The notes under the pieces were generated by a model. It made no database searches. It had not been told where the DNA came from and saw only the letters and a program-made list of their open reading frames with translations. Source: Rhynchopus sp. YZ270_cl-10 (Eukaryota). Taken from it: DNA of 64,000 nucleotides. The translations under genes were made by a program, and so were the position numbers. Position 1 is the first letter of the stretch. Each line of letters starts with the position of its first letter. Location of the stretch: positions 1,178,001-1,242,000 of the forward strand of contig OZ037833.1 of assembly GCA_964035575.1 (NCBI GenBank). The letters are read 5' to 3'. Below are positions 3,001 through 21,388 of the stretch, piece after piece.

Positions 3001-3750
3001 TAACGCGTCCGTTCTTAGGCATCCGTTCTAACGCATCCGTTCTTACGCATCCGTTCTTACGCATCCGTTCTAACGCATCCGTTCTAACGCATCCGTTCTA
3101 ACGCATCCGTTCTAACGCGTCCGTTCTAACGCGTCCGTTCTGATGCATCCGTTCTAACGCATCCGTTCTACGCATCCGTTCTAACGCATCCGTTCTAAAG
3201 CATCCGTTCTAACGCGTCCGTTCTGATGCATCCGTTCTAACGCATCCGTTCTAACGCATCCGTTCTAACGCGTCCGTTCTAACGCATCCGTTCTAACGCA
3301 TCCGTTCTAACGCGTCCGTTCTAACGCGTCCGTTCTAACGCATCCGTTCTGACGCATCCGTTCTTACTCGTCCGTTCTAACGCATCCGTTCTTACGCATC
3401 CGTTCTTACGCATCCGTTTCTAACGCATCCGTTCTGACGCATCCGTTCTGACGCGTTCGTTCTAACGCGTCCGTTCTTACTCGTCCGTTCTAACGCATCC
3501 GTTCTTACGCATCCGTTCTAACGCATCCGTTCTACGCATCCGTTCTAACGCATCCGTTCTAACGCGTCCGTTCTAACGCATCCGTTCTGACGCGTCCGTT
3601 CTAACGAGTCCGTTCTAACGCGTCCGTTCTGACGCATCCGTTCTAACGCGTCCGTTCTTACGCATCCGTTCTAACGCATCCGTTCTTACTCGTCCGTTCT
3701 AACGCATCCGTTCTAACGCGTCCGTTCTAACGCGTCCGTTCTGACGCGTC
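1..3750. repeat. 14-bp tandem satellite, consensus TTCTAACGCRTCCG (~265 copies, runs off the window start)
   Basis: Uninterrupted 14-nt period with variants CTGAC/CTTAC/ACTC; ends abruptly at ...CTGACGCGTC|AGTAAT. Confidence 0.98.
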
Positions 3751-3856
3751 AGTAATAGGAGAAATCGAGAGATGGGCGCAGGAATTAAAACCCGGTAGAA
3801 ATGTACTGCGCCAATATATTTTCTGAAACCCTTATTTTTTACTATCCGTTACCCTA

Positions 3857-3965
3857 CCCTGGCACCGCCCTGGCACCACCCTGGCACCGCCCTGGCACCA
3901 CCCTGGCACCACCCTGGCACCACCCTGGCACCACCCTGGCACCACCCTGGCACCGCCCTGGCACC
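3857..3965. repeat. 11-bp tandem repeat CCCTGGCACCR (~10 copies) in the viral left terminal region
   Basis: Directly visible between the AGT terminus and the fibre gene stop codon. Confidence 0.9.
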
Positions 3966-3995
3966 GGCCGGTGCTTTCTGCCCTACCTCCACACC

Positions 3996-6537
3996 TTAGG
4001 TCATCTTCCGCCAGGAACTCCTTGAAGCAAATGGTCCAGCCTGAAGTACCCGAATCCACTTGTCTTGGGTTTGCACAGAGATGACTTCCTGAATGCGTGA
4101 TGTGTCGTTAGTGATAATTGGATTTGGTAGCGTCTTATTATTGAGCAAGAAGAGAGTTGTTCCACCAAAGTCTGATGGAGCATTGGAATTATTGCTACTG
4201 TTATAAAGGGACGGTGGACCTATTTTCCACCCTAAAATTTCAGATTTTCGCTTTCAGACCAAATTTTAAGTCGATTAAAAATTGTTATTATCCCGCTGCT
4301 ATCCCGCTGTTATCCCGCTGCTATCCCGGTCACTCTTTCCCCCCCTTTTTACCCTTAAACATGCACAATCCTGTAAACCAGAGATACGCTCCACGTGTGG
4401 AACGTATGGAAATCCATACGTGAATTATTTTTGAAAAGGTAGAATCCATACGTGTCCATACGGAGGTAATTTGGGTTTTGGATTGGGGCTGGGGTGGGGG
4501 TAGGTGAGGGGCGGGGGCTCCGACCCGCCTCTCACCTACCCCCCCACAGAATTCTACTCGTAGGGGACAATTTTCTTCAATTTAACCGGAATGGGGGAAT
4601 GCAGCATGGCGAAAGAAAAAGTAGCGCACCGTGCGCCTGCGGCGCTAGCTAACGTGTTGCGGAACCTCTGGAAGCTCACAGGGAGGCCGTGATGGTGATT
4701 GAAGACGACGAGACTGAGGACGACGATGCGAGCTTTTGGCAGCAAAGCCACCAAAAGCCCTCCCTAAGGGAAAAAAGCGCCTGGACGCGATGTTCAACGC
4801 ACAAGGCAAAGGTGCGCAAAGGGGAGGTGAAGGAGGAGCTGCTGCAGGTGAAGGAAGAGGTCTTGGAGGTGGAGCAGCCAGACAGCCCTGTGGACTCTGA
4901 GGTGATGGAGATAGATGCCCCAGCAGCAGAAGTACAAGCAGCCCAACCTGCCCAACCAGCCCCACCATCATCCTCAGACCCTCTGCCCCAGCTGCAACGC
5001 CAGGAAGGAAGATGGCCTTGCTGCAGCCTGCGCTGGCAAAACCGGCATGAAAGCGAGCACGCAAACTGGCCGAACGCCAGAATCCCACCCCAAATTTTTA
5101 ATAAAATTTTTTTTACCATCCCAAAAGTTAAAAAGTTAAAATTTAACTCCAAAACAGGGGGACCTATTATCCTAGGGATAATAGGTCTACCCGGATAATA
5201 GGTCCACCCCCCCTTTACACATAGATCTCTTGGTCGTCTAAGTTTGAGTTAAAGTCAAATGATGTTGGATGATTTATTATTGTACGTGGGTTGAGGTCTA
5301 TCCCATCTATGTCGATTCTCTTCCAACCACTCCATGCACTACCTTTGCGTAGTCGTGAGTACCGTCTTTCACTGAATACCGCAATGAGTTCCTGAATAAC
5401 ATAAGTATCGAAAAGCTTAACGTCCAGTATGATCTCATAGCTACCAATATCTTCAGTAGGACCATTTTGTAAGTTACCTAGTTTGTACATCAGGTATACC
5501 CCACTTGCTGTCTTTGTGTCAAGATCAATTACGGTGTTGGTGGGTAACCCTCTGTCATCCTGGTATGGTTGATATATTTTGTTTTCGATGAGTAACCTTG
5601 ATGCATTGTCTTTGTTGTCCATAGTAGATTCCAAGGTTGTTGTTAGGGCATTGTCTTTACTGTCCATAGTATTCTCAAGTGTCGTTCGTAGTGTGCTATC
5701 TTTGTTGTCCATCGTATTCTCAAGTGTCGTTCGTAGTGTATTGTCTTTACTGTCCATAGTAGATTCCAGTGTTGTCGTTAATGCATTATCTTTGCTATCC
5801 ATCGTAGATTCCAAAGTTGTTCGTAGGGCATTGTCTTTACTGTCCATCGTATTCTCAAGTGTTGTTCTTAGGCCAGTGTCTTTGGTATCCATAGTAGATT
5901 CTAGTGTTGTCGTTAATGCATTGTCCTTCGTGTCCATAATGCTCTCAAGTGTTTCCTGACTCAAGTCTTCACTTGATGTCCATGCTGTCCATGGTACTCC
6001 CACACCTTTACGGATTCGAACATACTTCTTAAGGGAGAACACAGCAAGAAGCTTTTGGGTGACATAGTTTTCGAATACCTTTGTCGTGACAATGAGTTCA
6101 TAGCTGTTCAAGTTTGTGGGTGCGTTTTGTAAGTTCGCCCAGTTGTACAAGTAGTGAACACCTTGGGTTGTGTATGGTGCCACATTCAAGTCGTCATTTG
6201 TATCATCATCTTTATGGTTGTAGTATGGTGTGGGTATCAACTCTCTTGTGATTGTGTCTTTGGTATCCATAAGAGTTTCGAGATCACTTCTTGCTGTATC
6301 AATTCTCCCTTGTACATCACTCATGTAGGCTTGAACTTTCCATTCAAGTTTTCCCCCAATATCTTTTGACACAAGCAACTGATCATCACCCGAAGCTTCA
6401 GGTACCCTATGCGTGACAATCTCATCAATATGCTTCGTAACAATCTCGCCATCCTCCTTTATAGCAATATGACCATCAGGAGCATTCTCTGGTAGGATTG
6501 ATGTTGATTTATCGGATTGAAGATAACCAAATACCAT
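3996..6537 (-). CDS. Fibre/receptor-binding-like virion protein (~509 aa when reconstituted) interrupted by a transposon; segments 6537-5216 and 4203-3996
   Basis: Three copies of a knob-like domain (DLN/DLD...GxY...NxP...QELI...RxR...WxxW) and eight 15-aa [15 protein letters not shown] repeats. Removing 4206-5215 plus one TA joins ...QEIYV to [10 protein letters not shown]...SSWRKMT* in frame. Confidence 0.75.
4206..5215. mobile_element. Non-autonomous DNA transposon (1010 bp, 23-bp TIRs, TA TSD; Tc1/mariner-type signature)
   Basis: AAGGGACGGTGGACCTATTTTCC (4206-4228) versus the reverse complement of 5193-5215, AAGGGGGGGTGGACCTATTATCC. TA at 4204-4205 and 5216-5217. Confidence 0.9.
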
Positions 6538-6582
6538 TATTTTACTATAATACACATCACAATGAATGATGTGTCGTGTCAC

Positions 6583-7035
6583 TTAGGGCATACGTTGAAT
6601 AGTGATTGTCACTGAGATCTTCAATTCAGGTATCTTCTTGCTATCTCTTTCTATCTGTTCCTCAAGTATCTCATCCTCATCCTCATCCTCCTCCTCCACC
6701 TCCTCCTCCTCCTCAACCTCCTCAACCTCCTCAACCTCCTCAACCTCCTCAACCTCCTCAACCTCCTCAACCTCCTCAACCTTCAGATCTGCTAAGTCAT
6801 CATTACATGGTGAAGAAGCTTCAGTAATCTTCTCTAAGTTCTTGATATGTTTCTTCGATAAACAGTGTTGATTATACCCAAGCTTCTTCACACTCTTTTC
6901 ACACGCAGCACAGAAAGCCATCTCATGTTTCTGTCTCTGGTAAGACGCCTTTGCTGACGCAATCATCTTCTCCTTGTTGTTGAGGTAGTAATTCTTGTAG
7001 TACTGTGAATTATGTGGTGCCATTTTTATAGACAT
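6583..7035 (-). CDS. Viral Zn-finger protein with acidic (EEV)n tail; start may be 7023
   Basis: YYKNYYLNNKEK followed by CxxC...HxxSKKH; 9-bp repeat encoding EEV. Confidence 0.75.
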   Translation of the reverse strand: MSIKMAPHNSQYYKNYYLNNKEKMIASAKASYQRQKHEMAFCAACEKSVKKLGYNQHCLSKKHIKNLEKITEASSPCNDDLADLKVEEVEEVEEVEEVEEVEEVEEVEEEEEVEEEDEDEDEILEEQIERDSKKIPELKISVTITIQRMP

Positions 7036-7079
7036 TGTGTTTTTTATTTATATTCTTAAAAAAAAGAAAGTAAAAGAAA

Positions 7080-10000
7080 ATGATAACATCAGATAAGAAA
7101 CTCAAGGAGATAACTCAAGAGTACACCACCCCAATCAAAGCCTATGAGAAGCAGATCAACCTCCTCGGTAAGGCAGTGACGACTGGGGTATTGAGTGTTG
7201 GTACGATCCAAGCCATACAACAGGATGTCCTTCTAATTCAAGACAAGATCGTAAATCTCAAGTTGGAACAGAAGAAGGCTCTGGTACCATTTCATGAGGA
7301 GAAGAAGAAGGATAAGGTTGTCAAGAAGAAGATCACAGACAAGGAGCTTCTACCATTCGTACAAGAAGATATCAAGGATCTGAAGACAGCTGTTGCAAAG
7401 GCTAAGAAAGATCTCAAAGGTACCTTCTTCAAGCAGAACAAGTCAAGATTCGTCAGAGACTTCACAGAGGAACAACAAGGGCAGCTGAATGATATCGAGA
7501 AGCAACACAAGGAAGCCAAACGTAAGATTCTTGATGATGCAAAAGAGACACACAAGGAAGATATCATTCGGGGGAGGCTTGGAATAAAGAAGGAAGAACA
7601 GACAACTATCACTGAAGACCCCAACCATCTGGAGGAACTTATCGCAAAAACCACAGTAAAAGTCATCCATGGAGACAAAGGTACAGATGCCAAGATGATA
7701 ATAGAGCTCCCTGAACCGCTAGATGAGTACTTCTCTTCAACAATACGTGCACAATATGACACCATCACCGCATTCATTCAGGGAGACTTAGAAGGCAATC
7801 GCACCAAGAAGGTTAAGTTTATCTTGATGGCTATCTTCAGCAAACCAGACAATGAATCACCCAAACAAATCAGCAAGGAAGTATTCCTCAACAGTGTACT
7901 TGCAACAGACGTACTTGACTTAGATGCAGTTATGAAGCAAGGGAATGAGCTCTTCAACCGCGATGAAGGGGAGTCAGGTTTATTCTTTGTTGGCTTCAAG
8001 TATGTCACGATATTAACCTACAACACACAGATGAGCATCGGTGGTGAATATATTGATGTTGTGGAGAGGTTCAGTGCCAACTCCAATCTCAAGAAGAATA
8101 TTGTGAATGTAAAGAATGATGAGTACCCAGAAGTCAACAACGCATGCTTCCGTTTTGCTGTGATGGCACATGAGCATAACTTCCCGAAAGACGCATCACG
8201 AGTGAGCAAGTACTACAAGAAGAAGACTGGATGGATCGACTCAGATTATGATTTTTCTATGTTTACTGACTACACGCTTCCTACAACGGATCAGCAGGTC
8301 AAACACTTCCTGAAGGAAAACAAGAACACATCAATTAGCATATATGGTATTGAAGCTGCAGGCAAGTTCCATGTGTTGAGGCACGAGAAGTCCCCAAAGG
8401 AAGACCACATCAACCTCCTCTTCCATGACAACCACTACATGCTGATCAAGAACCTGAGCAAGATGATGGGTGATAATAACAAATATGTGTGTCCCAAGTG
8501 TTTGTCAGTCAAGAAGGATACCAAGAAGGAGATTGATGCCCACCTTGAGTCATGCAACGAGAAACCAACACAGAGAACACAGATGGCAAGGTCTGCTATT
8601 ATTGAGTTCTCCGAGAACAAGATGAAGAACAAAGAGATGAAGCCATTCATTATTACAGCAGATTTCGAGAGCTTCCTTGACACAAGAGACCAGGATACAT
8701 CATACAGCAAGACAAAGATAAAGACGCAGACAGGCAAAGATGAGACAACCATTCTCCAAACCCATCGTGCAGCCTCTTTCTCCCTAAAGCTTGTACCCGA
8801 CACTTCACTCAACTTTGCAGGTAAAACACTTTACACATACACACCTTCAGATCAAGATGATGCAGTTGAGTACGAGACTGACTTACTTGGTCAATTCAAC
8901 AATGCCTGCCAGGAGATAGCCGAGGACGTTGCAGCATTCATGACCACAAGCCAGAAGGAGTATGGTAGCATTGATAGTGCATGCATCGCATTTACAGCTG
9001 AAGATAAGGACAGACATGAAGAAGCCAAGAAGTGTGCATTCTGCAACAAGACCTTTAACTTCCAAAACATCAAAGTCAGAGACCATTGCCATTTGACTGG
9101 GAAGTACAGAAGGGCCTTGTGCTCTTGGTGCAACCTCAACAACAAGACAGAGTACAACATCCCCATCTACTTCCACAACGCCAGAGGATACGACAACAAC
9201 TATATCTTCAAGATGCTGAAGCAGTATGACTCAAATGGCGTCAATGTTCTGAACACCAACAGCCAAACAACAATGCTGATCAAGATGGACAAGTACACGA
9301 AGGTCAAGGTAAATCATGGGAAGGAGATTAAGAATAGGAAGATTTCGTTCCAGGTGAAGGATAGTCTACAAGTCATGTCGTCTTCGTTGGACACGCTGTT
9401 GAAGAACTTACCCCATGATCAGAAGGTACATCAGCTAGACTACATCAAGACCGCACACAGGGATATTGACGTGAATGATAAAGGCATGCTTGACCTCTTG
9501 TTGGGTAAAGGAGTGTTTCCATATTCGTACTTCGACAGTCCCAAGAAGCTAAGTGGATCACTACCATCGAAAGACCTATGGTATGACTGTCTAAGGCAGG
9601 ATGACATCAAACAAGAAGACTACGATAAAGCCTGCAGAGTGTGGAACACTCTAAAGTGCAAGACCTTCAAAGACTACCACGACTTCTACCTCAACATGGA
9701 TGTGCTTGGTCTTGCAGACGTCCTACAGGCACAAAGGAAGAACCTCCACACAACACATAAGCTGGACATTTGCCACTACTGCAGTCTCCCGAGCTTCAGC
9801 TATGATGCATGGCTACTGAAGCAACAAGAAGATGATGTGAAGATGAAGACCCTGAAGGACCCAGAACTATACGAGTTGTTTGAGGATCAAAAGCGTGGAG
9901 GGTTTACATGCACTGTGAAGAGACACTGCAAGGCCAACAACAAGCACACAAGAAGCGCAGACAACCAAGGCAAAGAAGGAGACACACACCTGTTGTACAT

Positions 10001-11336
10001 TGACGCAAACAACTTATACGGGTGGGCTATGTGCAAGAAGCTTCCCTACGATGATTTCAAGCTGATAGAATGCAAGAGTTTGGACTCAGGAGCAGAGCTC
10101 CATCGAGGGTTAACACCCGAGGAGACTGAGAAGATGATTGCCGACTACAACCCAGAGAGTGACACAGGTTATGCTCTAGAAGTTGACCTTGAGTACCCTT
10201 TGAGCCTCCACGACAAGCACTGGGACTTCCCTCTTGCACCATACAATAGGACTGTTAGAAGTGGAGAGCTGTCAGACTACCAGAGGAAAGTACTTGATGA
10301 TGAGAAGCATGCAGAGGGTGGGAAGCTTATTGCAGACTTCAAAGACAGAGTGAAGCAGACATACAACATTGAGTACTTGCAGTTCCTCCTCAGGCAAGGT
10401 CTGAAGTTGACGAAGGTCCACCGCATTGTCTCATTCAAGCAGGACAACATCATGAAGCCATACATTGACAAGAACAGTGCACTGAGAGCACAGGCAAAGA
10501 ACGATTTCGAGAAGGACCTGTACAAGTTGCTCAACAACTCCATCTATGGGAAGACCTTGGAAAATGTTCGTGGTAGGACAGAGATGAAGAACATCCCTTA
10601 CGACAAGACAAAGTGGGTGAAGGGGAAGGAGGTTCCAATGACAGAGGAGGAAATCAAGGAGTACATAGCAAAACATCAAAGCAAACCATTCTTCAACTGC
10701 AACACTGTCGACCTGAAGAGTAGCAAGATACTTCAATTCATGCAGGGGGACGTCACTCTTGACAAGCCTGTTTACATTGGCTCACAAATCCTGGACTACA
10801 GTAAGCTTCTCATGAACAGCTTCTTCTACGACACCCTCATCCCACATTTCGGAAGGGAGAACGTGACCATGGCCTATACCGACACTGACAGCTTTGTGCT
10901 GGAGATAACAACAAAGGATCTTGATGAGGAGCTTGCCAAGCTGTCTGCGGACTTCGACTTCAGCAACTACCCAACAACCCACGAGCTGTATGACGTAAAC
11001 AGCAAGAAGGTCCCAGGGAAGTTCAAAGATGAGCTGGCTGGTGATGTGATGGTTGAGTTCATTGGCTTGAGGGCAAAGTGCTATGCCTACTCAACGATCA
11101 AGAAGAACGACGACAACAAGGCCAAGGGTATAGCAAAGTCTGTCAGTAAAACTCTCAACCTGGACACCTATCGAAGTACCCTTGAATCCCACAAGAAGCA
11201 CGTTGTGACGATCAACAGCATCGAGAAGAGGGATCATGAGCTGCATACAGTGAGGTCTCAGAAGATAGCATTGAGTGCCTTCGATGACAAGAGGTATATT
11301 TGCGAGGATGGAGTCACCACAAAGGCCTACCGATAA
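7080..11336 (+). CDS. polB: Protein-primed family B DNA polymerase (pPolB), 1418 aa
   Basis: Exo motifs DFES, FHNARGYD, YLNMD; Pol motifs YIDANNLYG, KLLNNSIYGK, YTDTDS; inserted EndoVII-like CxxC..DHCHLTGKYR..CxxCN; OTU-like N-terminal NACF...NHY. Confidence 0.97.
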   Translation: MITSDKKLKEITQEYTTPIKAYEKQINLLGKAVTTGVLSVGTIQAIQQDVLLIQDKIVNLKLEQKKALVPFHEEKKKDKVVKKKITDKELLPFVQEDIKDLKTAVAKAKKDLKGTFFKQNKSRFVRDFTEEQQGQLNDIEKQHKEAKRKILDDAKETHKEDIIRGRLGIKKEEQTTITEDPNHLEELIAKTTVKVIHGDKGTDAKMIIELPEPLDEYFSSTIRAQYDTITAFIQGDLEGNRTKKVKFILMAIFSKPDNESPKQISKEVFLNSVLATDVLDLDAVMKQGNELFNRDEGESGLFFVGFKYVTILTYNTQMSIGGEYIDVVERFSANSNLKKNIVNVKNDEYPEVNNACFRFAVMAHEHNFPKDASRVSKYYKKKTGWIDSDYDFSMFTDYTLPTTDQQVKHFLKENKNTSISIYGIEAAGKFHVLRHEKSPKEDHINLLFHDNHYMLIKNLSKMMGDNNKYVCPKCLSVKKDTKKEIDAHLESCNEKPTQRTQMARSAIIEFSENKMKNKEMKPFIITADFESFLDTRDQDTSYSKTKIKTQTGKDETTILQTHRAASFSLKLVPDTSLNFAGKTLYTYTPSDQDDAVEYETDLLGQFNNACQEIAEDVAAFMTTSQKEYGSIDSACIAFTAEDKDRHEEAKKCAFCNKTFNFQNIKVRDHCHLTGKYRRALCSWCNLNNKTEYNIPIYFHNARGYDNNYIFKMLKQYDSNGVNVLNTNSQTTMLIKMDKYTKVKVNHGKEIKNRKISFQVKDSLQVMSSSLDTLLKNLPHDQKVHQLDYIKTAHRDIDVNDKGMLDLLLGKGVFPYSYFDSPKKLSGSLPSKDLWYDCLRQDDIKQEDYDKACRVWNTLKCKTFKDYHDFYLNMDVLGLADVLQAQRKNLHTTHKLDICHYCSLPSFSYDAWLLKQQEDDVKMKTLKDPELYELFEDQKRGGFTCTVKRHCKANNKHTRSADNQGKEGDTHLLYIDANNLYGWAMCKKLPYDDFKLIECKSLDSGAELHRGLTPEETEKMIADYNPESDTGYALEVDLEYPLSLHDKHWDFPLAPYNRTVRSGELSDYQRKVLDDEKHAEGGKLIADFKDRVKQTYNIEYLQFLLRQGLKLTKVHRIVSFKQDNIMKPYIDKNSALRAQAKNDFEKDLYKLLNNSIYGKTLENVRGRTEMKNIPYDKTKWVKGKEVPMTEEEIKEYIAKHQSKPFFNCNTVDLKSSKILQFMQGDVTLDKPVYIGSQILDYSKLLMNSFFYDTLIPHFGRENVTMAYTDTDSFVLEITTKDLDEELAKLSADFDFSNYPTTHELYDVNSKKVPGKFKDELAGDVMVEFIGLRAKCYAYSTIKKNDDNKAKGIAKSVSKTLNLDTYRSTLESHKKHVVTINSIEKRDHELHTVRSQKIALSAFDDKRYICEDGVTTKAYR

Positions 11337-11345
11337 GTCTTCAAT

Positions 11346-11368
11346 ATACATATCTCTGCGATATGTAT
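11346..11368. terminator. Putative bidirectional termination/polyadenylation hairpin between polB and MCP
   Basis: ATACATATC-TCTGC-GATATGTAT perfect 9-bp stem; exact reverse-complement copy at 15747-15769. Confidence 0.55.
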
Positions 11369-11384
11369 GTCTCTTATAGCAGTC

Positions 11385-12791
11385 TTACAGCACAGCACTG
11401 ACCTCTTGCACAATCCCTGTCTTCAGGTTAAAGTCAACAACCTTATCGTAGTACACCAAACAATACAGGTACATGTCGTAGCTGGCCTCTCTCTCAATGT
11501 TCACTGTCAAGGTGTTTGCCTGGGTGCTTGAGACGCTGTCTTGGTTCAATGTGTTCTGAAGGTCAAAGCAGTACATGGGGTAGTACTTCCAGTCGTTGTA
11601 GGAGAGCAGCCCTTGAGTGGTGAACCCCATTCCCTCAGGATCCTTGTAGGCACTATGCATCTTCATGTACTCCTTGTAGGCAGACTCCCACTTGTTCTTA
11701 CCCACCTCAATTTCAAGATCCTTGCTTGGCACCTTGATGCCGTTCAGGTCAACAGAGATCTTCCTCACCATACCACTGTCAAAGCGCGACATATCATGCT
11801 CTTGACTCGTTTCCCTGGCTTTCGTTTGGCAGAAGATGATTGCACGTTTGATCCTTGTGTGCGACTTGATTGGTACAGGCCAGGAGATGTATGTGTCGCC
11901 AGCTGCAAACTCCTTCCTCTGAATTTGTGAAGACTCAAAGACCGCTTGAACCATACCAGACTTGTTGATGTAGCTCAGAACTCCAGCAAGCGGTGAAGGA
12001 GCCAAGGTGACACGAGGCATCCAGATCCTCATACCATACCCAACCCAGTTCAAGGCACGGTCACTAACCCCAGAAGAGCGAAGAACTAGAGCACTGTCGT
12101 CATTTACCTCAAAATTGAACTCCATAGGTATGTTGGTGAACATCTTCTTGTGGTACTGGAATATGTTGAAGATAAGACTGAGAGGAACCATGCAGTGTAT
12201 CTCTCTGTTCCCTGTGGTGCGTCTTGCGCGGTGTGAAGTGCTTGAGTCTCTGTTTGCAGTGTCATTGAACCCATCCACAAAGTCATCATTAACAGCATCC
12301 TTCCAAGTGATGTAGTGGCTAAGTAGATTGCTCCCCACAGTGTCATCGTATTGATTGGTGAAGTGAATGAGTGACTCTGCATTCATCTGCTGTCCTGCAA
12401 AGTTGGGAGTGTCCTCGATGTTGACCCCACCGATCTTGAGTGACTTCCTTCTGAAGAAGTTGAGAACATTTGACGTGAAGGCAGCTTTGTTATCATCATT
12501 GTCAGCAAAGGTCCATGCTTCTGTAGCATCCAGGGTCTTGTGTGCTGCAAGGTCTTCATACCCGTTACCACCTGCGTTGACCTTTACCATCTTGAAGGAC
12601 ATCTCCAAGAACCCTTCAGAGGGGATGATGTGGCTGCTCTGGTCAAGAAGGGTGAAGGTGAAGTCCCGCTCGACTCTTCCAAACTGGTTCTGCAGGTTGC
12701 TTGACTTCCCAGTGTCTTGGATGGTGATGTAGTCGTACCCACTGACATCGGAGTGTCTCTTGGTTTTCTCACTCAAATTGTAGAAGCTCAT
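11385..12791 (-). CDS. Major capsid protein (double jelly-roll, Polinton/PLV type), 468 aa
   Basis: Size, beta-rich character and motifs (FFRRKSLKIGGVNIED, VPLSLIFNIF, LNGIKVP, YPMYCFDL, LYCLVYYDK) typical of Polinton MCPs; viral context. Confidence 0.85.
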   Translation of the reverse strand: MSFYNLSEKTKRHSDVSGYDYITIQDTGKSSNLQNQFGRVERDFTFTLLDQSSHIIPSEGFLEMSFKMVKVNAGGNGYEDLAAHKTLDATEAWTFADNDDNKAAFTSNVLNFFRRKSLKIGGVNIEDTPNFAGQQMNAESLIHFTNQYDDTVGSNLLSHYITWKDAVNDDFVDGFNDTANRDSSTSHRARRTTGNREIHCMVPLSLIFNIFQYHKKMFTNIPMEFNFEVNDDSALVLRSSGVSDRALNWVGYGMRIWMPRVTLAPSPLAGVLSYINKSGMVQAVFESSQIQRKEFAAGDTYISWPVPIKSHTRIKRAIIFCQTKARETSQEHDMSRFDSGMVRKISVDLNGIKVPSKDLEIEVGKNKWESAYKEYMKMHSAYKDPEGMGFTTQGLLSYNDWKYYPMYCFDLQNTLNQDSVSSTQANTLTVNIEREASYDMYLYCLVYYDKVVDFNLKTGIVQEVSAVL

Positions 12792-14188
12792 TTTGATAAG
12801 CGGATTCTATCTTGAGCAAATAGAAATTGTCTCAGCTGTGTTTCATCGTTGAGTATGTCAGGTTTGAGTGTGGGGAATGCTCGTTGTGCTATGCCCTTCA
12901 TGCGTTCAAAGGATGGGTCTAGCGGTGGGAGAAGCTTAAGTCTTTTGTTGGTCTTCGGGGGTGTCGGGGTCTCCTGAGTTGACGTCTGTGGCTCCTGTGT
13001 CTCCTGTGTGTCATCTGACTCCCTCACTCTCTTCTTAGCTCTTGCCTCTGCTCTGGGGTTACTGTTCAGATCTTCATCTTTCCAATTAGGACCAGCAAGG
13101 TTGGTCATGAAGCTGTCCATTTGTGACTCGTGTTCTGCTTCTTCTACAGCTGTGTTTTGCGGAGCATCACCAAAGTCTTGTTCTGGAGTAGATCTTGGAG
13201 CATCACCAAAGTCTTCAGGGTCGTTGACCCCTCCTGGGTCTTCAGCCTCCTCCTCTTTCACTTTCAACAACCTCTCAATCCTCACCTTCCTCCCATTACT
13301 CAGTCTTGCATTGACTTGAGCCACACTAACCACACTAAAGATCTCCCTTGAAAACTTTTGCTTTGTCCCCTTTGCATGTATATTCTTACTCAACAACACC
13401 CTCACTCTATCACCAGGTTTTACACTAGACTGCGACACACTTGCTTTATCCAGGTTCATGATGAGTATGCTGACATCGTCGTTGGTGACAAGGTTCGGAG
13501 GCTTCTTGATGGTGCTGTGGTATCTGTTGTTGTAGGCGTACGTTAGCTCCTGAAGGCTGTCTACCCAGTTTGCTGTCTTGTTGATCTCAAAGTGCTTTTG
13601 CAGGATTTCTCGCAGTGTTCTTGAGATGCGGTCGACAATCCCAAGGGCGTTATGGTCTCCAACCTCATTCATCTGGTGTTCTATGCTGTGGGCGCTGAAG
13701 ACTTCCTTCACCATCAGGTTGTTGAATTCTAACCCGTTGTCACTCATGATCGTTTGAGGAAGGTCCTTCTTATCTGTCTGTATCTGATGTAGTATGTCTG
13801 TCAAGGCTTCTTTGACACTACCCATAGTCTTGTTCTTCAGGGGTCTGGTGTACAACTTTCTACTAAAGACGTCTATCAAGTTCAGGATCCACGAGTAGCC
13901 TTTGTTCCTTGTCTTGAGCTTCTGGAAGTCGAGGAGGTCCATCTGCATGACGTGGTTGATCTCGAAGGCTGTGATGTGACCCGACAGCTTGCTTGGTTTC
14001 TTCCTGAACAGCTGATATGCCCTCTGCTTGTGTATGTAGTCCTCTATCTCGTCAAGGGTATACTTTTCTTCGGGGTTGTGTAGCTCTGCGCCTGCAAACT
14101 GAAAGTCAAACAACCTCGCAGGATCAGTGATGTAACCTGAGTCTCGCCATAATTTGTTCAAGTTTACTCTTACTTCGTTTGAGCTCAT
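12788..14188 (-). CDS. rve-family (retroviral-like) integrase
   Basis: QMDLLD, LIDVFSRK, IMSDNGLEF, GIVDRISRTLR, YNNRYHSTIK, GDRVRV; acidic low-complexity C-terminus, no chromodomain seen. Confidence 0.95.
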   Translation of the reverse strand: MSSNEVRVNLNKLWRDSGYITDPARLFDFQFAGAELHNPEEKYTLDEIEDYIHKQRAYQLFRKKPSKLSGHITAFEINHVMQMDLLDFQKLKTRNKGYSWILNLIDVFSRKLYTRPLKNKTMGSVKEALTDILHQIQTDKKDLPQTIMSDNGLEFNNLMVKEVFSAHSIEHQMNEVGDHNALGIVDRISRTLREILQKHFEINKTANWVDSLQELTYAYNNRYHSTIKKPPNLVTNDDVSILIMNLDKASVSQSSVKPGDRVRVLLSKNIHAKGTKQKFSREIFSVVSVAQVNARLSNGRKVRIERLLKVKEEEAEDPGGVNDPEDFGDAPRSTPEQDFGDAPQNTAVEEAEHESQMDSFMTNLAGPNWKDEDLNSNPRAEARAKKRVRESDDTQETQEPQTSTQETPTPPKTNKRLKLLPPLDPSFERMKGIAQRAFPTLKPDILNDETQLRQFLFAQDRIRLSK

Positions 14189-14208
14189 TTATTTCTTCTA
14201 CACAAAAA

Positions 14209-14610
14209 ATGGTCACTACAAGCAGATATCAGAAGACACCAGTGTACGTATCACCTGTCGACATGCAGAGGATTGCAGATGCCTTAGGTGGGAAGAGCAA
14301 GACCGTATCAGTTACGTTGCATGCAAGTGGTATCAAACGGTATCCATTGCCACTAACCTCAAAGCAGAAGGAGAAGGTCAAGGAGAAGGGGTCAACACGC
14401 ATCACTTTAAGTCAACCACAGCTGCTGTTCATTGGAGGTGATAGGAAGGAGGGAGGGTTCTTGCAGTTCTTGGTACCGTTGTTGGCAGCAGGAGCAAGTG
14501 CACTCGCAGGCTCGCTTGGGACACAGCTTGGTAGCACAGCAGGGAAGTTCATTGATAGGAAGGTGAATGGGCGTGGTCTGATAGCACCTGGTAGAAGGTT
14601 AAAAAAATAG
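14209..14610 (+). CDS. Adenovirus pX/mu-like core (maturation substrate) protein, 133 aa
   Basis: Basic protein with KEGGFLQFLVPLLAAGASAL, resembling the GG|ILPLLIPLIAAA segment of adenovirus pX; AAAAATG start at 14209. Confidence 0.65.
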   Translation: MVTTSRYQKTPVYVSPVDMQRIADALGGKSKTVSVTLHASGIKRYPLPLTSKQKEKVKEKGSTRITLSQPQLLFIGGDRKEGGFLQFLVPLLAAGASALAGSLGTQLGSTAGKFIDRKVNGRGLIAPGRRLKK

Positions 14611-15062
14611 GGGGCTTTGCTCCTGAACCTCTTCGAGATGATGAGATTATAGACTGGTGTAGAGATCAGGGCATAGAGCTGAAAGGTATGGTGATGAGGG
14701 ATGAGATTACTGACAACATGGATGGGTTGTACTTGATAAACTTAGATGAGAGAGAGGGTAAAGGAACACATTGGGTAGGTTTCTTTCATGACACTGACCT
14801 TACTTTCTACTTTGACCCCCTTGGTTTACCCCCTCCCCAAGAATTGACTGCACACTACAAACCCCTCACATACAACAGCAATCAAATACAGGATGTCTCT
14901 TCTGCACTATGTGGCTACTTTGTGTGTTTGTTCTTCAAGTACATGCATACGTATGAGGACAAATATGAAGGCTTCTACGCAATGACACACGGGATCTTTG
15001 GCAGCGACACAAAAGAAAACGAACGCGTACTTCTTGAGGATGTGTACGATGTATCAAAATGA
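14607..15062 (+). CDS. Adenain-like cysteine maturation protease, probably expressed as a -1 frameshift fusion to the upstream ORF
   Basis: GTHWV (His), FDPLG (Asp), QIQ, LCGYF (Cys). The frame is open from 14595 but has no ATG before 14688. Confidence 0.9.
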   Translation: MGGFAPEPLRDDEIIDWCRDQGIELKGMVMRDEITDNMDGLYLINLDEREGKGTHWVGFFHDTDLTFYFDPLGLPPPQELTAHYKPLTYNSNQIQDVSSALCGYFVCLFFKYMHTYEDKYEGFYAMTHGIFGSDTKENERVLLEDVYDVSK

Positions 15063-15694
15063 CCTCATATTGTGTAAAGTGCAAGACAAAGACCACAGAT
15101 GTCGATGGAGAGGAGACAACAACAAAGAACGGACGTCGAGGTGTGAAGAGCAAGTGTGCTGATTGCGGTACAAAGAAATTCAGGTTTGCCAAAGGATCTA
15201 CAGCTGAAAAACAAGGAGGAGACATTGTGAAGGCACTCAACGACAAGTTCCCAGACACAGAGTTCCACTTCCCAGTCATGAACGAAAAAACAGGACAAGT
15301 CGAGAAGGCTAACTTCATGGGACCAAACACAAAGCTGGAAGAGAGAATCAAAGACCTTGAGAAGAATGCTGAACGTGCATGGAAGGGAGAGCAGATACCA
15401 AAGGAGGACATCATAACACCAGGCAAATCAAGGTTCGATGAAAGTGCGATGATACACGACCTGCAGTACAAACATGCAGGAAAGATAGGGAAGAGTGGGA
15501 AGGATGTACGTAAGATGAAGCACAAAGCAGACCTACAACTCATCCGATCAAACATCTACCATGCACTAGACCCCAACAACAAGAGCTCAATAGACAGAGT
15601 ACAGCACATAGCGAGTGTCCCCACCTTCATCCTCAAGATCCTAGGGGAGACAGCGTATGGCAAGATCACAGGGAATGGAATAGAGATAAACTAG
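15059..15694 (+). CDS. Zn-ribbon plus parvovirus VP1u-like phospholipase A2 protein
   Basis: YCVKCK...CADCGTKK, then FMGPNT...DESAMIHDLQY...KADLQL (HD catalytic dyad). Confidence 0.85.
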   Translation: MTSYCVKCKTKTTDVDGEETTTKNGRRGVKSKCADCGTKKFRFAKGSTAEKQGGDIVKALNDKFPDTEFHFPVMNEKTGQVEKANFMGPNTKLEERIKDLEKNAERAWKGEQIPKEDIITPGKSRFDESAMIHDLQYKHAGKIGKSGKDVRKMKHKADLQLIRSNIYHALDPNNKSSIDRVQHIASVPTFILKILGETAYGKITGNGIEIN

Positions 15695-15696
15695 AC

Positions 15697-15987
15697 TCAG
15701 GAGCAGAGCTCCCTCGAGGGTGCTAACAGCACCGAAGACTCAAATAATACATATCGCAGAGATATGTATAGACACACTTGTATTGTGACCAACCCGTTCC
15801 CAAGCACAACATTATGCCTCTTAGAGATGTCAGCCAGTACATCAAGCACCTTCTTGTTGTCTCTTTCTTCTTGCTTCTCTTGCTTCTCCTCCATGTCTAC
15901 CCCACTACCCTCCACCAAATCACTCCAGGTTCTCTTCCTCCCTGATACCCTTTCACTATCCCTCACTAGATTTGACCACGATGACAT
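15697..15987 (-). CDS. Small viral protein of unknown function
   Basis: A-tract ATG 6 nt after the mCP stop; contains GSG/GNG motifs; 3' part overlaps the hairpin, so the end is uncertain. Confidence 0.5.
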   Translation of the reverse strand: MSSWSNLVRDSERVSGRKRTWSDLVEGSGVDMEEKQEKQEERDNKKVLDVLADISKRHNVVLGNGLVTIQVCLYISLRYVLFESSVLLAPSRELCS

Positions 15988-15993
15988 TTTTTT

Positions 15994-16734
15994 TTAGTAC
16001 GAAGATTTTACTTTGCGAAGGATAACATGATAGTTGACGTTCTCCCCTTGGTTGTTGATGCGCTTCCCATTCTGGTCTGTGAGCCAGAACCTTATGCTGT
16101 TGATCTGGGTCTTGTTGGTGGGGACATAGTACGAGCTGCCAGGTTCTACCACGTTGTACAAACTACTAGGAGGGAGGGAGGGTGGGCTGACAACATACAA
16201 GATTTGCGACTTGGTGCCTGATGTGCCGGTGTTGTGGTAAGAATACTTTGGGTTCACAAGATCACAGTGTACAACGACTGCTTGGATTCCGTTTGTGATG
16301 TCTGCGACGTGAGGCGCAGTGTTCACACCTGCACTTATGATGGTGTTCTCAGCAAAGCCTAAGATGCCATAGAAGGAGCCTGTTCTGAAGTTCACTTGAT
16401 AGTTAGCAGGTAGGGTGATCTTAATCTTCTGCAGGGCTAGGATGGGCTCTAGTGTGATTTCCGATGGTATGTGGTCGTTGATCTCAGAGATGCTGTAGTT
16501 CCCGTCACCGAACACTATTGTCTCCCATGAAGAACCGTTGTCACGACTCCACTCAAAGAAGTTGTTGCCTTGCTGCTGGCTGATGTTTGTCCACGAGTAG
16601 TACTGGCTGCTCTTGATGAGACTTATCTCGTAGCTGTCACCTTCGTCAAGGTATATGGGAGGGTTGTAGGCAACAGTGAAGTCAGTGGAGATTGGCTCTC
16701 CTTCAGAGGAGACAAAGAGTGAGAGTTGTTCCAT
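15994..16734 (-). CDS. Minor capsid protein (penton, single jelly-roll), 246 aa
   Basis: YYSWTNIS..NNFF, GNYSISEIN, ILGF, VHCDLV, IRFWLTDQNG motifs typical of Polinton mCP. Confidence 0.85.
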   Translation of the reverse strand: MEQLSLFVSSEGEPISTDFTVAYNPPIYLDEGDSYEISLIKSSQYYSWTNISQQQGNNFFEWSRDNGSSWETIVFGDGNYSISEINDHIPSEITLEPILALQKIKITLPANYQVNFRTGSFYGILGFAENTIISAGVNTAPHVADITNGIQAVVVHCDLVNPKYSYHNTGTSGTKSQILYVVSPPSLPPSSLYNVVEPGSSYYVPTNKTQINSIRFWLTDQNGKRINNQGENVNYHVILRKVKSSY

Positions 16735-16736
16735 TT

Positions 16737-17357
16737 TTATGAGTTGATTTCTTGTGTGAGGAGTTTGTGTTCCTCTAGGTCTATCTTGTTGTTGTTCAGA
16801 AGCCAGTCAAGGATAGTGGCTGCTTCTTGTTTGATTTCTTGACTTGTATTACCTGCCTTCTTTCCTCCTATCAAGATCGTCAGTCTATTCATTGCACCCT
16901 CGGTGTCCATTTGATACACACCACTCCCAGTCTTACCTCCTTTACCTTTACCCATACCTTTCCCTTTACCTTTACCTGTCGATGGTGTCGGAGTAATGCT
17001 ACCATCAAAAGTAGGCGGATTGTTGGGGTTATGGAAGTTCCATGTCGGACCCAGGTTCGGTGTCAGGTTCGGTGTCAAATTCGGGGTCTGCATACTACTA
17101 ATATGTGATAAAGCTTCTTGGAATGATGTCTGGTCTGAAGCACTCGGTTGTGGTGTGGATGTTGAGGTATATGTTGCAATTCCTGATAAGAAGTTGTCAG
17201 TTTGGTCTCCCTCATCTGAAGTCTTGATCGGGGCATCAATCTCCTTCAGGGTTTCTTGTTCGTTGAGAATATCAGATCGTTGTTGTGCTATGGAGTTCTT
17301 CAGTCTACCAATATCGCGTAGAAGCTTCTCGAGACTTGATGTATTGTTCAGTTGCAT
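16737..17357 (-). CDS. Polinton-type protein of unknown function
   Basis: C-terminal RLTILIGGKKAGNT...ILDWL motif after a GK-rich linker and KTGSG; AAAAATG start. Confidence 0.7.
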   Translation of the reverse strand: MQLNNTSSLEKLLRDIGRLKNSIAQQRSDILNEQETLKEIDAPIKTSDEGDQTDNFLSGIATYTSTSTPQPSASDQTSFQEALSHISSMQTPNLTPNLTPNLGPTWNFHNPNNPPTFDGSITPTPSTGKGKGKGMGKGKGGKTGSGVYQMDTEGAMNRLTILIGGKKAGNTSQEIKQEAATILDWLLNNNKIDLEEHKLLTQEINS

Positions 17358-17374
17358 TTTTTGTTATTGCAAAA

Positions 17375-18115
17375 ATGATACGCAATTACGTTACGAGGAA
17401 TGAGTCACCTGAGGATGATGAACATTCAAAGCTTCTTCCGTCGTGGCCATTCAGGATGTTGTCTGTCGGATCTTCTGGGTGTGGGAAGAGCACAGTGATG
17501 GGGAATATGCTGATGAACAAGGAGTTGAAGTTACCGTTTGACAGGGTCTTCGTTATCAGCACAACACTACACCAAAAGATCTACCAGGTTATGATGGAAC
17601 ACTTTGCAGACATTGACGAGAAGATACGAAGTGAGCTGGAACGGGAGTTGAAGAAGAAGAAGGTGAGTGAGGAGAAGATCGACGAGACCTTAGAAGCCTT
17701 GAAGCCAACAGCAGAGTTCTTCGACAGTGTTGATGAGTTCGATGTGGAGGACCTTGACCCCAACCAGAAGAATCTTGTGTTGTTGGATGACATTGTGATG
17801 GAGAAGAAACAGAGAGACTTCATTGACCTGTATGTACGTGGACGTCATCGCAACATCTCACCAGTCTACCTGAGTCAGAGCTTCTATGACACCCCAAAGG
17901 CGATACGACAGAACTGTAGCTGCTTCCTGCTGTTCAACCTCAACAAGAAGGAGAGACGGATGATAGCGACTTCATGCAGCGACCTTGAGCCTGATGAGTT
18001 CAACAGTATGTTTGAGGGTCTGCCCCGGTACAACTTCGTCATGATCGACAACCAGCCTGTTGTTCCTGAATTGAAGTATCGAAGGAACTTTGATGAGATT
18101 CTGTTTCCAGGATGA
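17375..18115 (+). CDS. FtsK/HerA-superfamily (poxvirus A32-like) genome packaging ATPase
   Basis: Walker A GSSGCGKS, Walker B VLLDD, RGRHRNIS..LSQS..PKAIRQN. Confidence 0.95.
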   Translation: MIRNYVTRNESPEDDEHSKLLPSWPFRMLSVGSSGCGKSTVMGNMLMNKELKLPFDRVFVISTTLHQKIYQVMMEHFADIDEKIRSELERELKKKKVSEEKIDETLEALKPTAEFFDSVDEFDVEDLDPNQKNLVLLDDIVMEKKQRDFIDLYVRGRHRNISPVYLSQSFYDTPKAIRQNCSCFLLFNLNKKERRMIATSCSDLEPDEFNSMFEGLPRYNFVMIDNQPVVPELKYRRNFDEILFPG

Positions 18116-18126
18116 TAAGAGAAACG

Positions 18127-18282
18127 ATGTCCGACAAGACGAGAGACTCAGAAACGAAGGTTCCTCGAGGGAATTCAGCCCGAGATGTGAGTTCGAGTGG
18201 GAGTGTTGGGAGCAAGATAGTGACTGTGATGTGTTGCAGGAGCAAATGTGTAGGGAACCCCAAGGTTGTGGTCAAACGGTAG
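18127..18282 (+). CDS. Possible 51-aa last viral ORF (MSDKTRD...CCRSKC...VVKR)
   Basis: Starts 11 nt after the ATPase stop; below the ORF-track cutoff; no recognisable domain. Confidence 0.3.
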   Translation: MSDKTRDSETKVPRGNSARDVSSSGSVGSKIVTVMCCRSKCVGNPKVVVKR

Positions 18283-18540
18283 GTATTGTTATACACATGC
18301 CATGTACGCGGTGAGGGGCACGTTGCAGATGTTGAGGAAGGAGATAAGAAAAGCCCATTCCCACCGTACTCACTCTTTTTGTTCATGTCCCCACCTGCCT
18401 CCTTCACTTGTGCCCACTCTTTTTCCACCCTCAACCTGCATTCCGACTATTTCACGCCGCATTGCCGCGGAATTCCAATGTGAACGACGGAGCACACCAT
18501 TCCTCCCTATTATCATCACCGGCCCCACACTTACACAGTA

Positions 18541-20163
18541 ATGCACCAACAGGAAACTACACAAATGACAAAATACAACAAAATGTGGCAATGGGCTCGA
18601 AAGGCCCATGACCAGGTCATTGAAGTTGGGGGTTTGAAAATTGGTGGAGGAATGTCCTTGAGCGTACTATGTTGGGAAGGCGCGAAGTACGCATGGCATA
18701 CATACAATGTAACAAACTATGGTCCAGACACCCTCTACGATCTCAAGAACAAGATGGAGGAGTCCCACGCACACCTCGACGAAATGCTCAAGAAGATTGT
18801 CACAGCACCGTACAAACCCGAAGTACCAAATGGCAGGGAGTATGTTCCAAGACAGCAAGATGGTGCACTGGAGAAGGATTTACAAGAGAACATCGCCAGC
18901 GAGACAGACTTCTTCTTGTTGATGGGTGAGAGCGGCTCAGGCAAAACCACGATGATGCAGCATTTGCTGAAAAAAAACTACAAGGAAGGCGTGATCTTTG
19001 TGGCGGTCCATGCGGATAAGCTGGTGGATGTGCCTAAAAACAAGGTGAGAGATGTGGTTGAGGCGGCTGTGCTCGAGCAGTTCGAAGAGTGCAAGGATCA
19101 TCCCCGCCATAAGCCCAGTTTTACGGGCTTCATCAAACACGCTAACGAGGTCCGGAAGAGGGCGAAGAAGGGGAAGAAGGCACATCCGCTGATCATCTAC
19201 ATCACTCTGGATACGAAGGAAGCTACAGAGCTCAGTTACGAGACTATGGGGAACATTGCCGTGGCTGTCGGGGGAATGGCAAGCGACCTTTCATCGAAGC
19301 AGAACTGTTGCAAGACCATTCTCGAGTTCTCCAAAACAGGAATATCCGACACGCTCAAGAAAATCCGCACTGATTTCGACCGTTTTGAAGTGGGTGCGAT
19401 GACAGAGGAGGAACTCCTGGCTATTGGGGAACAGCTAGTGCTGAAGGGTCCCCTGTATCTTGCGATGACAGAGGCCGAGAGGAAGGCGTTCCTAGTGAAG
19501 AAGGATCCCCAGAATCTTATTGGGCCGTATCTCAAGCACTATCACGACTGGTTGGGCGGACAGACAAAGACCTTGGCGGGGTTCATCAAAACAAAGGTGG
19601 GGTCTAAAAGTATGCAGAGTCTTTGTTGCCTTTTTGTACAATATGATTATTAACCACACATCTCATCGCAGTTGAGTCTGCCACCGCTGAAACAAAGGAT
19701 GAGGTTTTGACGAAGCTGAAGGCGGGTATGCTGTTGTTGGGGTGGGTAGTTTGTCAATTATGAGACACACGTATTGCACAGGGATCGATGGGAGGTAGTA
19801 CCGTGCGAATATTATTATTTTATGAATGATTAAACACATCACTTCGCAGGTATCGATGACAAGTATGACCTCGCATGCGAAAGCCTGGACAAACAGCCGC
19901 ATCTGGATGTTCTGAAGGGCATGGCACAGGCTGGAGCAGATGGTGTTCCCCACCGTGCTGCCAACAATGCTGCTATTACTGAACTCAGCAAACGTGACTC
20001 AGACTCTACACTGATCCGCACAGTGGGTGAGACCCACGTGAGGATCCACCGCTACTCTCACGCACTGTACCTGAATGGCGTGAAGGGGCCAGATGACGAA
20101 GGCGTGGAGAAGAATATTACAGAAGTGAAGGAGAAGTTCGGGATGAACGCGAAGTCTGCGTGA
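18541..20163 (+). CDS. Intron-containing P-loop NTPase (AAA/STAND-like); exons 18541-19609, 19672-19725, 19850-20163; 5' end uncertain
   Basis: YVPR...LLMGESGSGKTT. Two GTATGC...CGCAG introns (19610-19671, 19726-19849) splice in frame into the 19921-20163 ORF. Confidence 0.8.
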
Positions 20164-20521
20164 TGATATGGGTGTGGGGTGATGTACTTTTGTGGTTCTT
20201 TTTTTTTTGTTTATTTGTGTCTGGAGGAGGTGCGGGGAAGGGTATGAAAAAAAAAGAAAAAACAGGGTGTTGTCAACTGTCCCAACAACACAGGCTCAGC
20301 CGGGTGTGGGTAGGAATAGTAAATATGTTTTGTGATTATTTTTTATTTGTATTTGTCTCTGGAGGGTGGGAACAACGATGGGTCTTACTTGCACAATATG
20401 GGGGAAAAAAAAAACCGTCCTATGAGTTGAGTGTATGTCTCTGGTGCTTTGAGTCACAGCGAGGGGTTTTTGGTGATACTGTTATATTTTTGGAGGATAA
20501 CAAATTATGGTTCAAAAGAAT

Positions 20522-20672
20522 CGCGTCCGTTCTAACGCGTCCGTTCTAACGCGTGCGTTCTAACGCGTCCGTTCTAACGCGTCCGTGTTAACGCATCCGT
20601 TCTAACGCGTCCGTTCTAACGCGTCCGTTCTGACGCGTCCGTTCTGACGCATCCGTTCTAACGCATCCGTTC
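20522..20672. repeat. Second, short block (~11 units) of the 14-bp satellite, same orientation
   Basis: TTCTAACGCRTCCG units. Confidence 0.97.
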
Positions 20673-20673
20673 A

Positions 20674-21137
20674 CAGCTGTCGCACATGTCGCAGTCTGCG
20701 TTTGAGACCTTTGAGCACACAACGGGGCAGAGGATTGCGCGCGCAACCGGCGGAGTGCGCCTGCCCGCAGAGGTCGCTGCCGTTGTCGAGACCTTCTCCG
20801 GATTCCACGGCTTCCCCCTCAACCCCGTGTCTGCACCGCTTGAGAAGGAGAACGTACAGGCTGCCGGGGACGTGACCCCCCCGTTCCTGCGCAACACCTA
20901 CAACATCTCTGCTGTGCCTGCCAGCGGCAAGTCGAACATCCAGGCGATTGCGCAGTGCCAGGGCCAGTACGTGCGTGACGAGGACCTGCTTTTCCGTGTT
21001 TGTGAAGTAAGCGTGCTATCTATATCATCGTTCACATCGTTGGGTTCATCAACCACAGCAGCTAGAGAGTGTTTAGGATTTCCCAAAAGAAAACCAAATG
21101 TGCTGTCTATCTCAGCATACTGTGTTGAGCTAACGTT
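20674..21137 (+). pseudogene. Internally deleted duplicate of the S53 peptidase locus
   Basis: 20674-20987 matches 25932-26245 and 20986-21137 matches 27654-27805, with about 5 substitutions in total; joined at a CT microhomology. Confidence 0.93.
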
Positions 21138-21388
21138 CCAACCCCCAGCTTGAGCTGGGGTTCGACCGAGTTTTGATCTTCTTCTTCCTGTGACCAGCTT
21201 GTCAGCGGAGAAAGCTCGGGAAGCACTAGTTAAAATCACTTTTCTCTCTCTCTCTCTCTCTCTCTTTTTCTCTTTCAAATAGAACGATGGTTTTGGCTGA
21301 GGCCCGGGAGTTAGGCTGAGGCCTTCCCTCCTCTACCTCTCTCCTATACATGACACAGACCCACTCCAGGTTTACCAACACAAACACA

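Follow-up and report, generated by a model that had tools for sequence, protein, structure and literature searches.

In several giant viruses, namely Mimivirus, Megavirus, Moumouvirus, and Bodo saltans virus as well as Marseilleviridae and Pithovirus, gene ends carry a hairpin polyadenylation signal, with the poly(A) site inside the hairpin, for which the Mimivirus rule has been given as a stem of at least 13 bp with a loop of at most 5 nt (PMC8557863); gene-end hairpins are also described at 16 genes of the virophage Sputnik (PMC6723459). For most groups of Polintons, it is considered open whether transcription takes place in the host nucleus or is carried out by a helper giant virus (PMC10120064), and viral infection of diplonemids was, according to a 2021 review, without experimental verification (PMC8061765). 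We analyzed a 64-kb stretch of Rhynchopus sp. YZ270_cl-10 DNA (contig OZ037833.1, positions 1,178,001 to 1,242,000; hereafter the window) containing an element of approximately 15 kb which, judged by its genes, is an integrated multi-copy Polinton-type virus. Our preferred reading, held with moderate confidence, is that a 24-mer found twice in this virus represents a shared two-way transcript 3′-end signal. The likely diplonemid host sharpens the question of transcription, as diplonemid mRNAs are released from polycistronic RNA by trans-splicing, while the head-to-head genes of the element are 17–44 nt apart and its gene ends carry discrete hairpins.

The 24-mer (TATACATATCTCTGCGATATGTAT) is located at 11345–11368 on the forward strand, and exact matching in the window confirmed the inverted second copy reported in the original prediction, an exact reverse complement at 15747–15770. 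These two sites were the only window matches at up to three mismatches (0 of 100 shuffles contained any), and the 24-nt pair is the longest exact inverted repeat in 5216–18150, a region for which 200 Markov simulations gave a maximum of 17 nt. The repeat is real, but the description as a 24-bp hairpin is not, as the perfect stem at site 1 comprises just 9 bp (11346–11354 with 11360–11368) with a loop of 5 nt; Watson-Crick pairing does not include the first T, and G-U pairs lengthen the stem to 11 bp on the polB strand of site 1 only. The 9-bp stem folds from both strands, with in-context fold z-scores of −2.2, −1.3, −2.2, and −0.4. A lone hairpin of this size is common (at least one in 30 of 100 simulations, two in 2 of 100), and 18 were found in the remaining window (18150–64000); what goes beyond chance is the identity and position of the two copies, not the presence of a hairpin. 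No Rfam family and no tRNA was detected in the window.

Hairpin 1 (11345..11368, +) lies, as previously placed, between the facing stop codons of polB (7080..11336, +) and the gene for a double jelly-roll (DJR) major capsid protein (MCP; 11385..12791, −), in a gap of 48 nt that leaves 8 nt to the polB stop and 16 nt to the MCP stop. Hairpin 2 (15747..15770, −), the exact reverse complement, lies downstream of a gene identified by family scans as encoding a DUF5679/PLA2-like protein of the PLA2X type (15059..15694, +); the facing gene is a small open reading frame (ORF) downstream of the minor capsid protein (mCP) gene, and not, as had been proposed, the mCP gene itself. This small gene, ORF69 (15778..15987, −), encodes 69 amino acids in the family but extends to 15697 here, so that the 96-codon minus-strand ORF of this copy runs across hairpin 2. 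Seven of the eight members of the ORF69 cluster stop at residue 69, which places the family stop at 15778–15780, 7 nt before hairpin 2; both 24-mers therefore share the same geometry, with a stop codon followed by 8 or 7 nt and then the 24-mer in the same sense. On the other side, hairpin 2 is 52 nt from the PLA2X stop here and 14 nt from it in one sibling contig that lacks an inserted segment. The claim that the element has only two convergent junctions was upheld for the genes in 3752–18300, the right end of the element not being located in the window.

The original prediction made no mention of a third hairpin (6552..6574, −), which has a related 8-bp stem and a 7-nt loop and lies at a tandem junction, 8 nt past the stop of a gene (6583..7035, −) whose 150-aa product contains an acidic repeat and weakly matches a zinc finger. 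Its arms and loop differ from those of hairpins 1 and 2, while its distance from the stop is alike. The region 5216–18300 contains three perfect stems of at least 8 bp, all 8–9 nt past a family stop and none in coding sequence; simulations expect 2.2 such stems anywhere in this region, which makes the count ordinary, but not the position. Three of 12 stops are followed by a perfect stem of at least 8 bp starting within 10 nt, as compared to 0.01 expected from shuffles, although two of these three stems are the identical pair and hence not independent.

Sibling copies, known from contig fragments and proteins, include clusters of 20 MCP, 24 PolB, and 25 mCP sequences, of which 15 each were examined, all on ENA contigs (large ones in the case of the 20-member MCP cluster); seven near-full-length PolB copies are 97.5–98.5% identical. 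Sibling contigs were compared in four runs over 11270–11450 and four runs over 4000–19000 (1691 differences and 73 joints, of which 40 and 15, respectively, were examined). In the main family, hairpin 1 was spanned unchanged in all four runs. More divergent siblings include a form in run X1, which at site 2 retains both arms with one loop base altered and the upstream flank replaced, and a form in run X2, which at site 1 shows the loop AATGC and an intact right arm; the read-through tail IHIALICI of protein P0021 matches this AATGC form, and its translation is compatible with an intact left arm. In run X3 (record 18, site 1), the polB end is approximately 85% identical and is followed by 113 other letters, after which the alignment picks up again exactly where the right arm begins. 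Loop and flanks thus vary more than the arms among the four partial sibling sequences, and the expected recurrence of the motif in sibling elements was observed, with an identical motif in the main family and elsewhere arms that are mostly kept while loop or flanks have changed.

The hairpin is real and probably functional. Its stop-linked position and the retention of sibling arms over loop and flanks support the part of the original prediction that proposed a bidirectional 3′-end signal, for which the transcript ends themselves are still inferred. Each copy lies at the meeting point of two gene blocks and would terminate the transcripts that reach it from either direction; the nascent RNA, folding the stem on either strand, would be cut there and polyadenylated. 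Within the integrase–MCP, protein X–protease–PLA2X, and ORF206–mCP–ORF69 blocks, genes abut or overlap without an intervening hairpin, and their RNAs would therefore share one 3′ end, such that two hairpins may serve nine genes. The element encodes no recognized cleavage or polyadenylation enzyme, suggesting a reader external to it; more broadly, no transcription or 3′-processing enzyme, including RNase III and poly(A) polymerase, was recognized among its proteins. The closest precedent for such a reader would be the RNase III and poly(A) polymerase of cytoplasmic giant viruses, to which we assign about half of the weight of this explanation; a host nuclear factor would be the alternative. The gaps between head-to-head genes (44, 20, and 17 nt) are A/T-rich and appear to fit short viral promoters better than the spliced-leader array system of Diplonema papillatum. 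The two hairpins provide exact coordinates at which host-reader and helper-reader models of transcription could be told apart.

Several observations weigh against a 3′-end signal. The stem is short and its in-context folding modest (z-scores from −0.4 to −2.2), and the fibre-like and ATPase genes end without a perfect stem of at least 8 bp near the stop. Among siblings, X1 record 6 and X3 record 19 have a spacer of 6 nt at site 1, together with two base changes in the right arm (ending in TGCAC; the left arm of this form falls outside the visible sequence), one X2 form lacks both the hairpin and the polB end (joint 11324–11374, depth 38.8 vs. 59.1), and no compensatory arm changes were seen in the four partial variants. 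Distant relatives were also considered; an alignment of the ATPase retrieved 30 IMG/VR loci at 26–34% identity, or 19 after dereplication. Two results from these 19 relatives favor the signal, namely a perfect stem of at least 8 bp within 10 nt past the stop in 34 of 321 genes (4.5 expected) and the repeated 9-bp stems of L039, L040, and L047 described below. Against it, when junctions are compared in counts that include redundant loci, hairpins are enriched at every junction type, being present at 8 of 22 convergent, 91 of 296 tandem, and 21 of 39 divergent junctions (2.6, 27.2, and 8.1 in shuffles), and the three loci sharing the MCP or mCP type of the element (L035–L037) have a stem within 10 nt past the stop at only 1 of 59 genes; an 11-bp stem lies 25 nt past the MCP stop of L035. 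Lastly, the Polinton-type contig L035 carries two identical copies of a 29-nt palindrome, inverted relative to each other (1557–1585 and 9206–9234), at one tandem and one divergent junction, and upstream of genes, which implies that a palindrome of this kind need not be a terminator. Short intergenic hairpins, including duplicated ones, are not unique to this element.

The repeated palindrome upstream of L035 genes favors a different function, in which the palindrome acts as double-stranded DNA, either bound by a dimeric protein of viral or host origin to block polymerases that converge there, or in replication or packaging. A palindromic motif also precedes early genes in medusavirus (PMC8557863), and the arms keep their sequence and are the same at both sites, unlike Mimivirus hairpins (PMC4402537). 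The PolB of the element bears an endonuclease VII domain. The endonuclease VII family cuts cruciforms; converging transcription, however, would disfavor cruciform extrusion. One sibling form differs in spacer length and arm, hairpin 3 occupies the same position with other arms and a 7-nt loop, and the fixed distance to the stop codon suits an RNA signal, and we regard a double-stranded DNA site as unlikely.

The identity of the two copies might also have arisen without any function, as a by-product of templated insertion or gene conversion that survived in the few non-coding gaps. This family indeed copies a 36–45-bp segment with two hairpins, which is present as an in-frame 12-codon insert in polB (10083..10126, +; 5 of the 10 polB copies covering the site), again between the PLA2X stop and hairpin 2 (15694..15740, +; missing in one sibling contig), with a corresponding peptide in the tails of two integrases (P0340 and P0346). 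These copies resemble the products of short templated insertion or of a tiny palindrome that moves within the virus; a weaker likeness at approximately 18143–18190 was noted by eye only. Because the family copies short segments between sites, the same process can homogenize the two hairpins, and their identity is therefore weak evidence for sequence-specific reading. Copying accounts for identity but not for retention, however. The presence of the double-hairpin segment varies, while the arms of the hairpin persist in diverged subfamilies with replaced flanks, and hairpin 3 differs in sequence yet retains its distance from the stop. We consider a mere by-product quite improbable; the two copies have probably stayed identical through short-range copying inside the element along with selection.

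Palindromic arms, an asymmetric spacer, and inverted orientation could likewise identify the pair as recombination sites, or as an inversion scar, flipping the 4.4-kb block from MCP to PLA2X, both orientations of which would keep the junctions convergent. No tyrosine or serine recombinase was found among the proteins scanned, though, and the spacer is not constant across subfamilies. In each of the four runs, a contig covers hairpin 1 along with its normal flanks, none of four loose ends falls at the motif edges, and there were no strand changes among the 15 of 73 joints examined, a negative that covers common forms since contigs drop rare variants. We give hardly any credence to inversion. 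Internally deleted derivatives of the element were observed, with joints 5215–17831, 11411–17358, 11759–17877, and 13532–17045, many of them ending near the ATPase gene; protein P0314 represents a PolB fused to the protein X-like gene, and the sibling integrases P0338–P0346 carry a 9-residue repeat in up to approximately 40 copies in the C-terminal tail.

The host is likely a diplonemid, as indicated by the sequence of one host gene and by viral relatives. The neighboring sedolisin gene has its best species-named match in Diplonema papillatum (51–56%), and relatives of the MCP were found in the transcriptome sets of Diplonema ambulator (33%) and Rhynchopus euleeides (30%), followed by the Trichoplax MELD virus (25%). 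Related capsid proteins (P0018 cluster, P0025) include 10 isoforms in the D. ambulator set and one in that of R. euleeides, suggesting, at the level of protein similarity, a diplonemid-wide Polinton clade. In such a host, the hairpins could be host-type marks for RNA polymerase II termination at convergent strand switches, for example by base J. In D. papillatum, genes are arranged in polycistronic arrays, and those for base J, a terminator of transcription in trypanosomes, are present (PMC10161547); moreover, the related MCPs in the D. ambulator and R. euleeides transcriptome assemblies would fit transcription by the host. On the other hand, the motif is absent from the host DNA of the window, and hairpin 3 lies at a tandem junction. 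Base J follows a T-N12-A spacing pattern, and the motif contains no such pair. Termination marks of this type are thus highly improbable.

If the 3′-end reading holds, this recently multiplied element may depend for its transcription on an undiscovered diplonemid giant virus, with the hairpin as that virus's cleavage and polyadenylation signal and the element a provirophage by lifestyle and not by capsid; we consider this possible but doubtful. The original prediction of a giant-virus reader and a virophage-like lifestyle found circumstantial support in parallels of host and hairpin, set against the 9-bp stem, the lack of AAAATTGA upstream of genes, and a non-virophage capsid. In favor, the element has no recognized transcription or 3′-processing enzyme of its own, and the kinetoplastid-infecting giant virus Bodo saltans virus, which is thought to be independent of trans-splicing, has palindromes after its ORFs together with RNase III and poly(A) polymerase (PMC5871332); medusavirus, a virus with few transcription genes, has no 3′ hairpins (PMC8557863). 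The mRNAs of D. papillatum derive from unidirectional polycistronic arrays by trans-splicing of a spliced leader (PMC10161547); the text of that paper's supplement, as far as available, contains no mention of Polinton, Maverick, polyadenylation, or convergent. On the opposing side, the 9-bp stem is below the thresholds of 13 bp for Mimivirus and 10 bp for Pithovirus, and the hairpins of Mimivirus show no sequence conservation (PMC4402537). The motif AAAATTGA occurs once in the element, inside the MCP gene, and not upstream of genes, although, as the early promoter of Gezel-14T, it may not be the motif of a helper here; TCTA and TGCG are too frequent in the element to be judged as promoter motifs. 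Genes related to the MCP in diplonemid culture transcriptomes also speak against a helper, but could reflect host read-through or DNA carry-over. The MCP is not of the virophage type, with Pfam DJR-like_dom as its only family match and the MELD virus hexon as its nearest named match; it had no sequence match in the PDB, and its predicted fold (model predicted local distance difference test [pLDDT] 59.5) matched DJR capsids, with Sputnik and mavirus no closer than others.

The motif was not found in giant-virus contigs or in related viruses by exact, arms-only, or degenerate searches, contrary to what might have been expected of a helper. The exact 23-mer had no match in IMG/VR, and the arms alone were found in 32 IMG/VR loci, whose loops and surroundings vary and which were taken to be unrelated on ORF context only; two of these are giant-virus-sized or a giant virus metagenome-assembled genome (GVMAG), namely L025, in which the arms are part of a longer stem that follows a stop, and L014, in which they lie at a divergent junction. 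A partly degenerate motif gave two metagenome matches, neither viral by ORF content. Close relatives of the element were absent from IMG/VR and JGI metagenomes in searches with MCP, PolB, an MCP alignment, and the ATPase P0380, and from the phage collection. Three of the distant relatives (L039, L040, and L047) carry a repeated 9-bp stem, TATAC(C/T)TTT-NNN-AAA(A/G)GTATA, 1–5 nt past stops; this motif is present in 7–13 copies per contig, just after stops and shortly before starts. These three loci encode a 607-aa protein that resembles Preplasmiviricota capsid clusters, one of these clusters being 29% Sputnik_MCP; it has a model pLDDT of 32 and no PDB sequence match, and is a lead for a virophage type only. 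Should a giant virus read the hairpin, the hairpin could serve as a tag for finding this undiscovered virus of diplonemids.

The gene set of the element is that of Polintons/Mavericks, with pPolB, rve integrase, DJR major capsid, A32 ATPase, and adenain protease. The pPolB gene at 7080..11336 (+), whose endonuclease VII domain corresponds to Pfam Endonuclease_7, has a homologue in L036 (E = 8e-114), and its translation contains what we take to be PolB motifs. The integrase gene (12788..14188, −) has a stop that overlaps the start of the DJR-like MCP gene, with no hairpin between the two. It is followed by genes for a protein X-like core protein (14209..14610, +; Pfam Adeno_PX, E = 7e-4, under the curated cut-off) and an adenain-type maturation protease (14688..15062, +; Pfam Peptidase_C5). 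Beyond ORF69 are a likely mCP gene (15994..16734, −), which has no Pfam or PHROGs type and is conserved in L035–L037, ORF206 (16737..17357, −), which encodes 206 aa of no recognized family, and the A32-type packaging ATPase gene (17375..18115, +; start assigned via homologues). The fibre-like gene (3996..6537, −), which encodes 508–509 aa in most siblings, is split here by a 1012-bp insertion (4204–5215) with inverted ends, across which sibling contigs join 4203 to 5216; a part of this insertion (4599–4650) recurs at five further places in the window. The likely left end (3752..3990, +) begins with AGTAAT beside a 14-bp satellite, and the window contains no right terminal repeat matching it. 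The same satellite occupies 1–3751 and 20520–20670, on either side of the virus plus 2 kb more of other sequence, which suggests that the virus inserted into a satellite array.

Elsewhere in the window, 20674–21141 is a copy in which two stretches of the sedolisin locus (25932–26245 and 27654–27809; 98–99% identical) are spliced together. The region 28090–33702 encodes an 1870-aa host protein with many cysteine-rich repeats, a likely membrane anchor, and no Pfam match, and 40121–42510 is occupied by a perfect inverted repeat of 704 nt that encloses a core of 982 nt.

A literature search that covered titles and abstract openings, to the exclusion of subscription papers and bioRxiv supplements, found no paper describing hairpins at the gene ends of a Polinton or of a DNA virus of diplonemids. 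Among elements of similar size, the Polinton/adintovirus-like MELD viruses share pPolB, rve, DJR capsid, ATPase, adenain, PLA2X, and a protein X-like gene (PMC8502044); the element described here differs in its likely diplonemid host, and hairpins are unmentioned in the main text of that report. Gezel-14T (PgVV), a polinton-like virus, provides an example outside the Lavidaviridae of an element relying on a giant virus for transcription (10.1101/2022.07.28.501842), but Gezel-14T is tied to its helper by the early promoter AAAATTGA, which is lacking upstream of the genes here, and the word hairpin does not appear in that preprint. Sputnik and transpovirons are alike in being small DNA elements that have no RNA polymerase of their own and carry gene-end hairpins of the host-virus type (PMC6723459, PMC7031253). 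In contrast to Sputnik, the element has a capsid that is not virophage-specific, being nearest among named matches to diplonemid transcripts and the Trichoplax MELD virus hexon, has pPolB and integrase, sits in a protist nuclear genome, and shows no identified helper promoter motif. The likeness to the hairpin rule of Mimiviridae comprises an A/T-rich palindrome right after stops, a 5-nt loop, and usability on either strand (PMC4402537, PMC3542560, PMC5413956, PMC5871332), whereas the element is a 15-kb integrated one without a recognized RNase III or poly(A) polymerase. In Mimivirus, structure is kept and sequence is not (PMC4402537); the element has two identical copies, loops that vary between subfamilies, and a third hairpin that differs. 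When the rule is applied, the palindrome lies outside coding sequence just past stops, while the stem is too short, with 9 bp as compared to at least 13 bp in Mimivirus, at least 15 bp in Megavirus, and at least 10 bp in Pithovirus (PMC8557863). By this comparison, the hairpin falls short of the size that defines a giant-virus gene-end hairpin, but would work like one.

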